Below the pieces are notes generated by a model. The model was not told the DNA's origin, searched no databases, and saw nothing but the letters and a program-made list of their open reading frames with translations. The translations under genes and the position numbers were made by a program. 64,000 bases of DNA from Escherichia coli (GTDB lineage: Bacteria > Pseudomonadota > Gammaproteobacteria > Enterobacterales > Enterobacteriaceae), in the NCBI RefSeq assembly GCF_001677475.2, contig NZ_CP015229.1, one strand, 5' to 3'. How positions within the stretch are numbered: the stretch's first letter is position 1; each line of letters begins with the position of its first letter. Below are positions 43,529 through 44,183 of this stretch, in pieces.

Positions 43529-43936
43529 TTATCTTTGCGCCTCTTGTTGCAACAATATCCGCCGTAAATCCCGCCATTCGGCTTCGTCCATGCTGTCGGC
43601 TGCCAGCCATAAATGTTGCCGTTTACCGCCATCAGAACGTAAACGCAGCATCATGCCGCTCTTAATCATCCACGGCGCTTTGACGATGCTCCACTCCTGC
43701 CCTTGCCAACGCAAACGCCCGTCCATCAACAGGCGAATTTCCCCCTGGCGAGCATTAATGCGTCGCTGGCTGCGAACGCAATCAAACACCACCAGCGAAA
43801 GTAACACCATCCATAACGGGGTGTAACTGAGCGGCCAGGGCATGAGTAAAATAACAGCGGCAACCAGCCCATGAATCAGCAAGGAAAGCCACTGTGCGCG
43901 CCAGGAGACGCGCAGATCAGATTGCCACAGGACCAC
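43529..43936 (-). CDS. cptA: inner-membrane protein YgfX / CptA
   Basis: 135 aa with two hydrophobic segments; start region overlaps the sdhE stop. Confidence 0.85.
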
Positions 43937-44183
43937 GTTCCCGGTTCCGTGTCTGGATGAGTCGGACCATCATTTCCAGTTCTGCATCCGCCGGTTTACC
44001 GTGATTCATCAGCCAGTTAAACAGGTCCGGATCGTCACACTCCAGCAGACGAATAAAGATGCGTTTTTCGTCATCGCTTAAGCTGTCGTACTCATGTTCG
44101 AAAAACGGCATGATTGAAATATCGAGTTCGCGCATACCACGGCGGCATGCCCAATGAATGCGGGCTTTGTTGTTAATGTCCAT
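43917..44183 (-). CDS. sdhE: succinate dehydrogenase flavinylation factor SdhE (YgfY / CptB)
   Basis: 88 aa; conserved RGxxE motif (CRRGMRELD). Confidence 0.88.

Follow-up and report, generated by a model that had tools for sequence, protein, structure and literature searches.

The sdhE-ygfX pair of Escherichia coli, a probable housekeeping operon that carries a toxin-antitoxin name

We find that positions 43529 to 44183 of the window, by which we mean the whole 64,000-nucleotide stretch of Escherichia coli DNA that was analyzed, hold the known E. coli sdhE-ygfX gene pair; both the pair and the controversy around it have been described before. The reading that we favor, and judge to be probable, is that the two genes form a vertically inherited chromosomal housekeeping operon in which YgfX most likely serves as an accessory of SdhE or of flavoprotein maturation, and that the toxicity of overexpressed YgfX does not reflect its physiological role. 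The value of this analysis is corrective. Databases and Pfam call YgfX a “toxin” and surveys count the pair as type IV, whereas in the comparative data ygfX behaves as a housekeeping gene, conserved and linked to genes for flavoproteins. What we add is modest: a frozen start region of ygfX embedded in sdhE, a PH-like structural model of YgfX, an arrangement in which the pair is linked to sdhAB, and YgfX homologs that have no adjacent sdhE.

Both genes lie on the minus strand. sdhE (43917..44183) starts with ATG and encodes an FAD assembly factor of 88 aa, and ygfX, also named cptA (43529..43936), starts with GTG and encodes an inner-membrane protein of 135 aa. The 3' end of sdhE and the 5' end of ygfX share 20 nt (43917..43936, minus strand; GTGGTCCTGTGGCAATCTGA), where sdhE reads ...CGT GGT CCT GTG GCA ATC TGA and ygfX reads GTG GTC CTG TGG CAA TCT GA...; the genes are co-directional and the ygfX frame is +1 relative to that of sdhE. 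An earlier note on this DNA had described an overlapping, co-directional pair of an 88-aa SdhE with an RGxxE motif and a 135-aa YgfX, and the open reading frames and the sequence confirm this description, the motif being R15-G16-M17-R18-E19. SdhE matches the Pfam family Sdh5 (PF03937; E=5e-26, 90.8 bits, cut-off 27) and, over residues 1-88 of 88, the NCBIfam equivalog NF008130 (E=1e-59, 198 bits, cut-off 120). Residues 2-131 of YgfX match Pfam PF07254 (Cpta_toxin, formerly DUF1434; E=7e-50, 169 bits, cut-off 27.3); YgfX matches no NCBIfam model. Given these E-values, both open reading frames are real and not products of chance.

Identity across the 1.1-kb region is 95-99% in 5425 of the 5426 complete E. 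coli genomes (98.5-98.7% for the locus DNA against the best-matching genomes), and in these 5425 genomes sdhE-ygfX is chromosomal with a median of one copy. The RefSeq annotation of E. coli NCTC86 contains the identical two genes and overlap under the labels “FAD assembly factor SdhE” and “protein YgfX”; a toxin label is absent. Relative to the E. coli K-12 pair (ygfY-ygfX, b2897-b2896, cptB-cptA), the genes, their order, and the 20-nt overlap are identical, and the neighbors are also as in K-12, with recJ, dsbC, xerD, and fldB on one side and ygfZ, trhA, yqfB, and bglA on the other. The differences are allelic only; for instance, the C-terminus of YgfX is ...QQEAQR in the window and ...QQETQR in common E. 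coli alleles.

The housekeeping role of SdhE is firmly established by solved structures and by a published deletion phenotype. The protein encoded in the window matches PDB 1x6i at all 88 residues (100% identity) and shows no difference across residues 2-88 from SdhE as bound to SdhA in PDB 6c12; it differs at one position from the SdhE chain of the FrdA-SdhE intermediate (PDB 6b58). There, the motif residue G16 touches the histidine of FrdA that binds FAD (PMC5773532). E. coli survives deletion of ygfY, but with greatly reduced succinate dehydrogenase activity and next to no growth on succinate (PMC5293155). Within our SdhE alignments R14, R15, G16, and E19 are invariant, the motif itself spanning residues 15-19. 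As a small five-helix protein with an RGxxE motif and an end-to-end profile match, SdhE shows no difference from the SdhE/Sdh5/SDHAF2 family (PF03937). According to the solved structures and published work, this small cytoplasmic protein binds SdhA and FrdA, both of them flavoprotein subunits, and promotes the covalent attachment of FAD.

The distribution of the pair is that of a core gene set. A genome scan anchored on SdhE, from which the best 80 matches by identity were kept, covers 80 species, all of them Enterobacteriaceae; with E. coli NCTC86 these give 81 loci. All 81 share the gene order (sdhE, then ygfX), the GTG start, the 20-nt overlap, and the TGA stop. The surroundings are equally stable, with ygfZ divergent upstream and fldB and xerD downstream (where the flanks are long enough) in 80 of 80 species. 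Within the Enterobacteriaceae both genes are under strong purifying selection (dN/dS of ~0.04 for sdhE and ~0.08 for ygfX). YgfX nevertheless evolves faster than SdhE: its mean identity to the E. coli protein within the family is 79% versus 91% for SdhE, and the E. coli and Pantoea YgfX proteins are only ~27% identical.

On the evidence of searches with YgfX, in which plasmid matches were judged by record size or by a single inspection, the pair appears to be effectively absent from plasmids and phages. Using tblastn, we obtained matches in 12 of 72,556 plasmid records. Five of the 12 are records of 4-5 Mb that resemble mislabelled chromosomes, and the one that was inspected, a 51-kb Enterobacter “plasmid”, contains the whole bglA-ygfZ-sdhE-ygfX-fldB-xerD-dsbC-recJ run and is therefore chromosomal DNA. 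Of 50,697 phage records two matched, and both seem to be something other than a real phage. A published survey finds CptA to be one of only four “toxin” groups with a prevalence of at least 80% in every E. coli sequence type (PMC10790755).

We find that the start of ygfX is embedded in a stretch of sdhE that is frozen at synonymous sites. The third-position entropy of sdhE is 1.16 bits over codons 2-77, falls to 0.27 bits over codons 78-82, and is 0.12 bits over the overlap codons 83-88; the lowest other window of five sdhE codons has a synonymous-site entropy of 0.70 bits. Codons 78-82 are ACA CGG AAC CGG GAA in the window (43938..43952, minus strand), follow the pattern ACA CGG AAY CGG GAA across loci, and make up the 15 nt before the ygfX GTG; the GTG and these preceding 15 nt are frozen at the synonymous sites of sdhE in all 81 loci. 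This collapse of entropy indicates that the ygfX initiation region inside sdhE is under selection at the nucleotide level. The putative initiation region contains weak GGAA/GGGAA Shine-Dalgarno-like elements and may serve in ribosome binding or in coupling. Taken together, the weak Shine-Dalgarno-like sequence, the GTG codon, and the conserved start region suggest that translation of ygfX, which starts at the conserved GTG 20 nt inside the end of sdhE, is coupled to that of sdhE and probably weaker. The RNA around the ygfX start is predicted to form a small hairpin (z of only -1.8 for the 101-nt fold), and the region varies too little for covariation.

Other expression signals lie on either side of the pair. 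The Shine-Dalgarno sequence of sdhE, AGGAAG (44187..44192, minus strand), is conserved in the upstream regions of the Enterobacteriaceae loci. A candidate -10 hexamer of a putative sdhE-ygfX promoter, TACAAT (44219..44224, minus strand), falls within CGAAAAACACGTTACAATAGCC, the best-conserved block between sdhE and ygfZ, with ~90-100% conservation in the aligned upstream regions; this candidate has no good -35 element, and a sigma-70 consensus scan of the region returned no promoter. Downstream of the pair, where fldB and ygfX converge, the 39 nt that separate them contain a hairpin at 43496..43525 (-22.4 kcal/mol, z=-4.3 relative to shuffles, when the 61-nt stretch 43480-43540 is folded as minus-strand RNA). 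Given the T-rich tract 3' of the hairpin on the plus strand, we consider it most likely to be the fldB terminator, and it possibly acts in both directions. A simple terminator scanner did not call this hairpin, the loop of which is too long; the only two terminator-like sites in the scan are both inside ygfX and are at roughly chance level.

The YgfX protein has no sequence-related solved structure that we could find. An AlphaFold2 model based on an alignment of 48 sequences has a mean pLDDT of 95.2 and a pTM of 0.77, and consists of a strand (residues 2-8), a transmembrane hairpin of two helices (12-31 and 36-62), six strands (65-112), and a C-terminal helix (118-134). The two helices agree with the two-helix membrane protein proposed in the earlier note. 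Its N-terminal strand is probably the piece that closes the sheet, a point in favor of the annotated GTG start. Known structures of the bPH family have two membrane helices in a hairpin, attached to a small sandwich of seven strands with a C-terminal helix as its cap. The YgfX model, with its hairpin, its seven strands, and its C-terminal helix, may follow the plan of the bPH membrane proteins of the YdbS/YdbT type (Pfam bPH_2); a Foldseek search of the PDB with the model gave nothing significant. With moderate confidence, then, YgfX can be modeled as an inner-membrane transmembrane hairpin that carries a small PH-like domain on the cytoplasmic side. We know of no toxin family with a fold like the predicted one. 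YgfX is also said to be multimeric, according to the title of McNeil 2013.

The YgfX family is small. A filter-free phmmer search of 1.84 billion cluster representatives yields 134 clusters at E<=1e-3, and those with source names come from the Enterobacterales (Pantoea, Tatumella, Rosenbergiella, Plesiomonas, and Ca. Symbiodolus) and from a betaproteobacterial group (Ca. Accumulibacter and Azonexus). By sequence search, relatives of YgfX occur only in Gammaproteobacteria and in a few Betaproteobacteria. A profile search with 12 distant YgfX sequences recovered only 5 proteins, as hydrophobic words swamped the word index.

The earlier note had pointed to the conservation of overlap and gene order outside the Enterobacteriaceae as a check, and here the order is usually kept and the overlap is not fixed, varying in length and giving way to gaps in places. 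Proteus, Pantoea, and Tatumella have the same synteny as the Enterobacteriaceae. The sdhE-ygfX junction is an overlap of 20 nt at locus L084, of 26 nt in Pantoea ananatis (L085) and at L097, of 38 nt in Tatumella (L089 and L090), and of 14 nt at L094; it is a gap of 30 nt at L096, of 37 bp in Shewanella oneidensis (PMC8621075), and of 307 nt in Proteus mirabilis (L083), where the gap holds a hairpin with 26-nt arms. Every gammaproteobacterial lineage sampled has sdhE followed by ygfX, with the exception of L095. At L095, ygfZ is followed by a 115-nt spacer and then by the PF07254 gene, which bacA also adjoins; no sdhE is present between ygfZ and this gene or within ~1 to 3 kb of it. On the metagenomic contig L086, the pair is found directly after succinate dehydrogenase genes, in the order sdhA-sdhB-MAPEG-sdhE-ygfX on one strand. 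In Ca. Accumulibacter and Azonexus (Rhodocyclales), the PF07254 gene comes after fabH-fabD-fabG-acpP-fabF and overlaps the 3' end of the convergent nadB gene, and no SdhE homolog is encoded within +/-4 kb. The YgfX homologs of these two genera are only ~36% identical to each other, which indicates that the fabF/ygfX-like/nadB arrangement is old. The product of nadB is a flavoprotein of the SdhA/FrdA family.

Based on the operon linkage, the sdhAB-linked and nadB-linked arrangements, and an SdhE-YgfX interaction that McNeil 2013 reportedly found, we propose that YgfX has an accessory role. Most likely it works at the membrane alongside SdhE or in the maturation of flavoproteins (complex II), for example by tethering or buffering SdhE there, and it may in this way have an effect on flavinylation. 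The growth arrest and lemon-shaped cells that strong overexpression reportedly causes would then be an effect of overexpressing a multimeric membrane protein and not a bona fide toxin-antitoxin activity. A more specific version of this proposal, which we put forward tentatively as one possibility, is that YgfX is an unrecognized membrane-anchored accessory factor for the maturation of flavoproteins, complex II among them and perhaps NadB; the PH-like domain of YgfX would dock or buffer SdhE at the inner membrane, and the “toxin” phenotype would be an overexpression artifact. If this were true, the Pfam name Cpta_toxin and the toxin-antitoxin database entries would be mis-annotations across thousands of genomes, complex II assembly would gain a bacterial membrane component, and a supposed toxin-antitoxin drug target would come off the lists.

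The alternative that survives best, although we regard it as unlikely, is that YgfX has a membrane or envelope function that is unrelated to SdhE and that the two genes share an operon in the Enterobacterales only for historical or expression reasons. An AlphaFold2 model of SdhE-(GGGGS)6-YgfX has a pTM of 0.46 and a disordered linker, so there is no confident SdhE-YgfX interface in this monomeric model built on a shallow alignment of 28 pairs, as an unrelated function would have it. The same can be said of the Rhodocyclales gene that follows a fatty acid cluster with no sdhE nearby, of the L095 gene that stands alone beside ygfZ and bacA, and of the Proteus spacer, whose hairpin parts ygfX from sdhE. 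YgfX evolves much faster than its operon partner, and it was found among membrane-biogenesis proteins in a YibN pull-down. However, the sdhE-ygfX order, broken only at L095 among the gammaproteobacterial lineages sampled, speaks against this alternative, and the frozen overlap and initiation region imply that co-expression has been selected. The placement of the pair right after sdhAB in L086 also speaks for a functional tie, as does the interaction reportedly found by McNeil 2013.

Published tests of the toxin-antitoxin reading are split, being positive for the E. coli and Acinetobacter baumannii genes and negative in Serratia and Shewanella; the earlier note was right both that the pair has been described as CptB/CptA and that this interpretation is debated. 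According to papers that cite it, Masuda 2012 reportedly observed that YgfX overexpression is toxic in E. coli, produces lemon-shaped cells, and blocks the polymerization of FtsZ and MreB, and YgfY is said to relieve the effect. The A. baumannii homologs are toxic in E. coli, with a partial rescue that needed 5-10 mM IPTG. The pair is present in 99.4% of A. baumannii genomes and hence behaves as core genes in this species as well. In Serratia, the Fineran group detected a protein-protein interaction between SdhE and YgfX and did not find a toxin-antitoxin phenotype, and swimming showed no discernible change when ygfX was deleted. In Shewanella, deleting ygfX along with ygfY gives the same defect as deleting ygfY alone, co-expression of YgfY and YgfX worsens growth with no rescue, no change in morphology was seen, and a two-hybrid assay gave no YgfX signal with FtsZ, MreB, or YgfY. 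In Serratia, Shewanella, and A. baumannii, sdhE and ygfX are reported to be co-transcribed, and the Serratia and Shewanella studies report no phenotype of ygfX at native levels. Several of these observations sit uneasily with our preferred reading of an accessory housekeeping protein, namely the toxicity and relief claimed in Masuda 2012, to the extent that citing papers relay them, and the toxicity and partial rescue of the A. baumannii pair. The toxin-antitoxin-like gene layout, the unaltered swimming of the Serratia ygfX deletion, and the negative Shewanella two-hybrid result also run counter to it.

More doubtful still than an unrelated membrane function is a genuine type IV module, in which the membrane toxin CptA (YgfX) inhibits FtsZ/MreB polymerization and is opposed at the target by CptB (SdhE), which has no need to bind the toxin. 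The overexpression phenotypes, of E. coli YgfX as relayed from Masuda 2012 and of the A. baumannii genes in E. coli, are what such a module would produce. The locus also has the layout typical of toxin-antitoxin operons, with small, adjacent, co-directional genes that overlap, are co-transcribed, and have the antitoxin first, and the absence of a predicted SdhE-YgfX interface is compatible with partners that do not interact. A close comparison is with the type IV pair CbtA/CbeA (YeeV/YeeU), which has the same reported targets, FtsZ and MreB, the same lemon-shaped cells, and an antitoxin that is said to act on the target. CbtA/CbeA pairs reside in cryptic prophages, are multi-copy, and vary between strains, and CbtA is soluble. 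By contrast, sdhE-ygfX belongs to the core genome in a single copy and is not mobile; YgfX, unlike CbtA, is an integral membrane protein, and SdhE does separate work in an essential pathway.

These differences extend to what is expected of toxin-antitoxin modules in general. The pair is syntenic as well as core, single-copy, and non-mobile, whereas a patchy, mobile, or multi-copy distribution is typical of such modules, if not strictly defining. The supposed antitoxin has an independent housekeeping role that is structurally proven, and E. coli sdhE deletion mutants are viable. YgfX homologs are kept with no adjacent sdhE in two Rhodocyclales genera, Accumulibacter and Azonexus, and at L095; the supposed toxin is thus not always linked to its antitoxin. 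The equivalence of the Shewanella double mutant to the ygfY single mutant, the lack of a toxin-antitoxin phenotype in Serratia, and the 5-10 mM IPTG needed for rescue with the A. baumannii pair likewise tell against a type IV module. The suggestion in the earlier note of a possible non-canonical toxin-antitoxin module is thus unsupported by the comparative record, in which the pair is conserved in place, its first gene is a housekeeping factor, and its second gene can occur apart from the first. On sequence comparison, membership of the toxin-antitoxin class is disfavored. Least probable of all, and entirely inferential, is a scheme in which YgfX inhibits division or elongation and is gated by free SdhE, linking the assembly of respiratory complexes to growth, which would accommodate both the toxicity reported in E. 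coli and the data on interaction with SdhE, and in which the frozen coupling would fix the SdhE:YgfX ratio, but which is at odds with the lack of a reported native-level ygfX phenotype in the Serratia and Shewanella studies and with the existence of YgfX homologs that have no adjacent sdhE.

Two further candidates were considered and rejected. A programmed frameshift that would yield an SdhE-YgfX fusion is one; fusions do occur in the metagenome database, with lengths of 207-217 aa where the SdhE part is complete, but they are singletons or pairs with junctions at differing positions and hence are sporadic indels or sequencing errors. The other is the “Cpta_toxin motif” of the Acidovorax effector AopN, an irrelevant 43-residue KEGG motif match in a protein of 635 aa.

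We find that the organization of sdhE and ygfX differs among the genomes compared. For instance, in Proteus mirabilis (comparison locus L083) the two genes do not overlap but are separated by a 307-nt spacer (L083:2694-3000), which contains an inverted repeat (2744-2796) whose arms are each 26 nt long. This repeat is a candidate terminator, and if it could act as one, then sdhE and ygfX may be transcribed separately in Proteus mirabilis. In a second example, from Kluyvera genomosp. 3 YDC799 (CP022114.1), sdhE is intact and the reading frame of ygfX changes twice, disrupting the gene; this reflects either a pseudogene or indels in the assembly. 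In a final example, five loci from Ca. Accumulibacter and Azonexus (L091-L093, L099 and L100) carry a YgfX-family gene between the fab operon and nadB-rpoE-rseC, where it overlaps approximately 26-29 nt of the 3' end of the convergent nadB; this layout is common to the two genera.

The metagenome database also contains SdhE-YgfX "fusion" proteins of 207-217 aa (P0002, P0003, P0006, P0008, P0009 and P0012). Programmed frameshifting was considered as their origin and rejected. Given that the fusion junctions differ in position, lying within or close to the gene overlap, and that each fusion is seen only as a singleton or a pair, these proteins look like the products of indel or sequencing errors.

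Among complete E. coli genomes, the sdhE-ygfX locus has no match in 1 of 5426, and 1 of 5426 locus matches falls on a record that carries a plasmid label. Several "plasmid" records in PLSDB (NZ_CP114989.1, NZ_OL790696.1, NZ_OL790811.1 and others) seem to be chromosomes or chromosome fragments, including records of 4-5 Mb and a 51-kb Enterobacter record that has the run of genes from bglA to recJ. Entries of this kind can produce false "plasmid-borne" matches for core genes.

Within the window, the 39-nt spacer between the convergent genes fldB and ygfX contains a stable hairpin (43496-43525). The 61-nt stretch that includes it (43480-43540) has a z-score of -4.3, and the plus-strand T-tract that follows the hairpin extends into the final codons of ygfX. 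At the protein level, residues 34-83 of SdhE (43917-44183) match YbjN (PF10722) below threshold (E = 8e-4; 20.1 bits against a Pfam cut-off of 22), which is probably a helical-repeat coincidence.

Elsewhere, a SIB RNA on the plus strand (59776-59926; Rfam RF00113, 138 bits) points, by this family assignment, to a type I toxin-antitoxin locus (Sib/Ibs) in which it is the antitoxin sRNA, and by the same match the window does hold a bona fide toxin-antitoxin element. The Sib/Ibs element is about 16 kb away from sdhE-ygfX. The window additionally encodes 6S RNA (ssrS; 58944-59127, plus strand, 140 bits) and tRNA-Gly(CCC) (2280-2353, minus strand), and a short plus-strand match to the ES036 sRNA (48999-49041) scores 40.8 bits, barely over the gathering score of 37.6.
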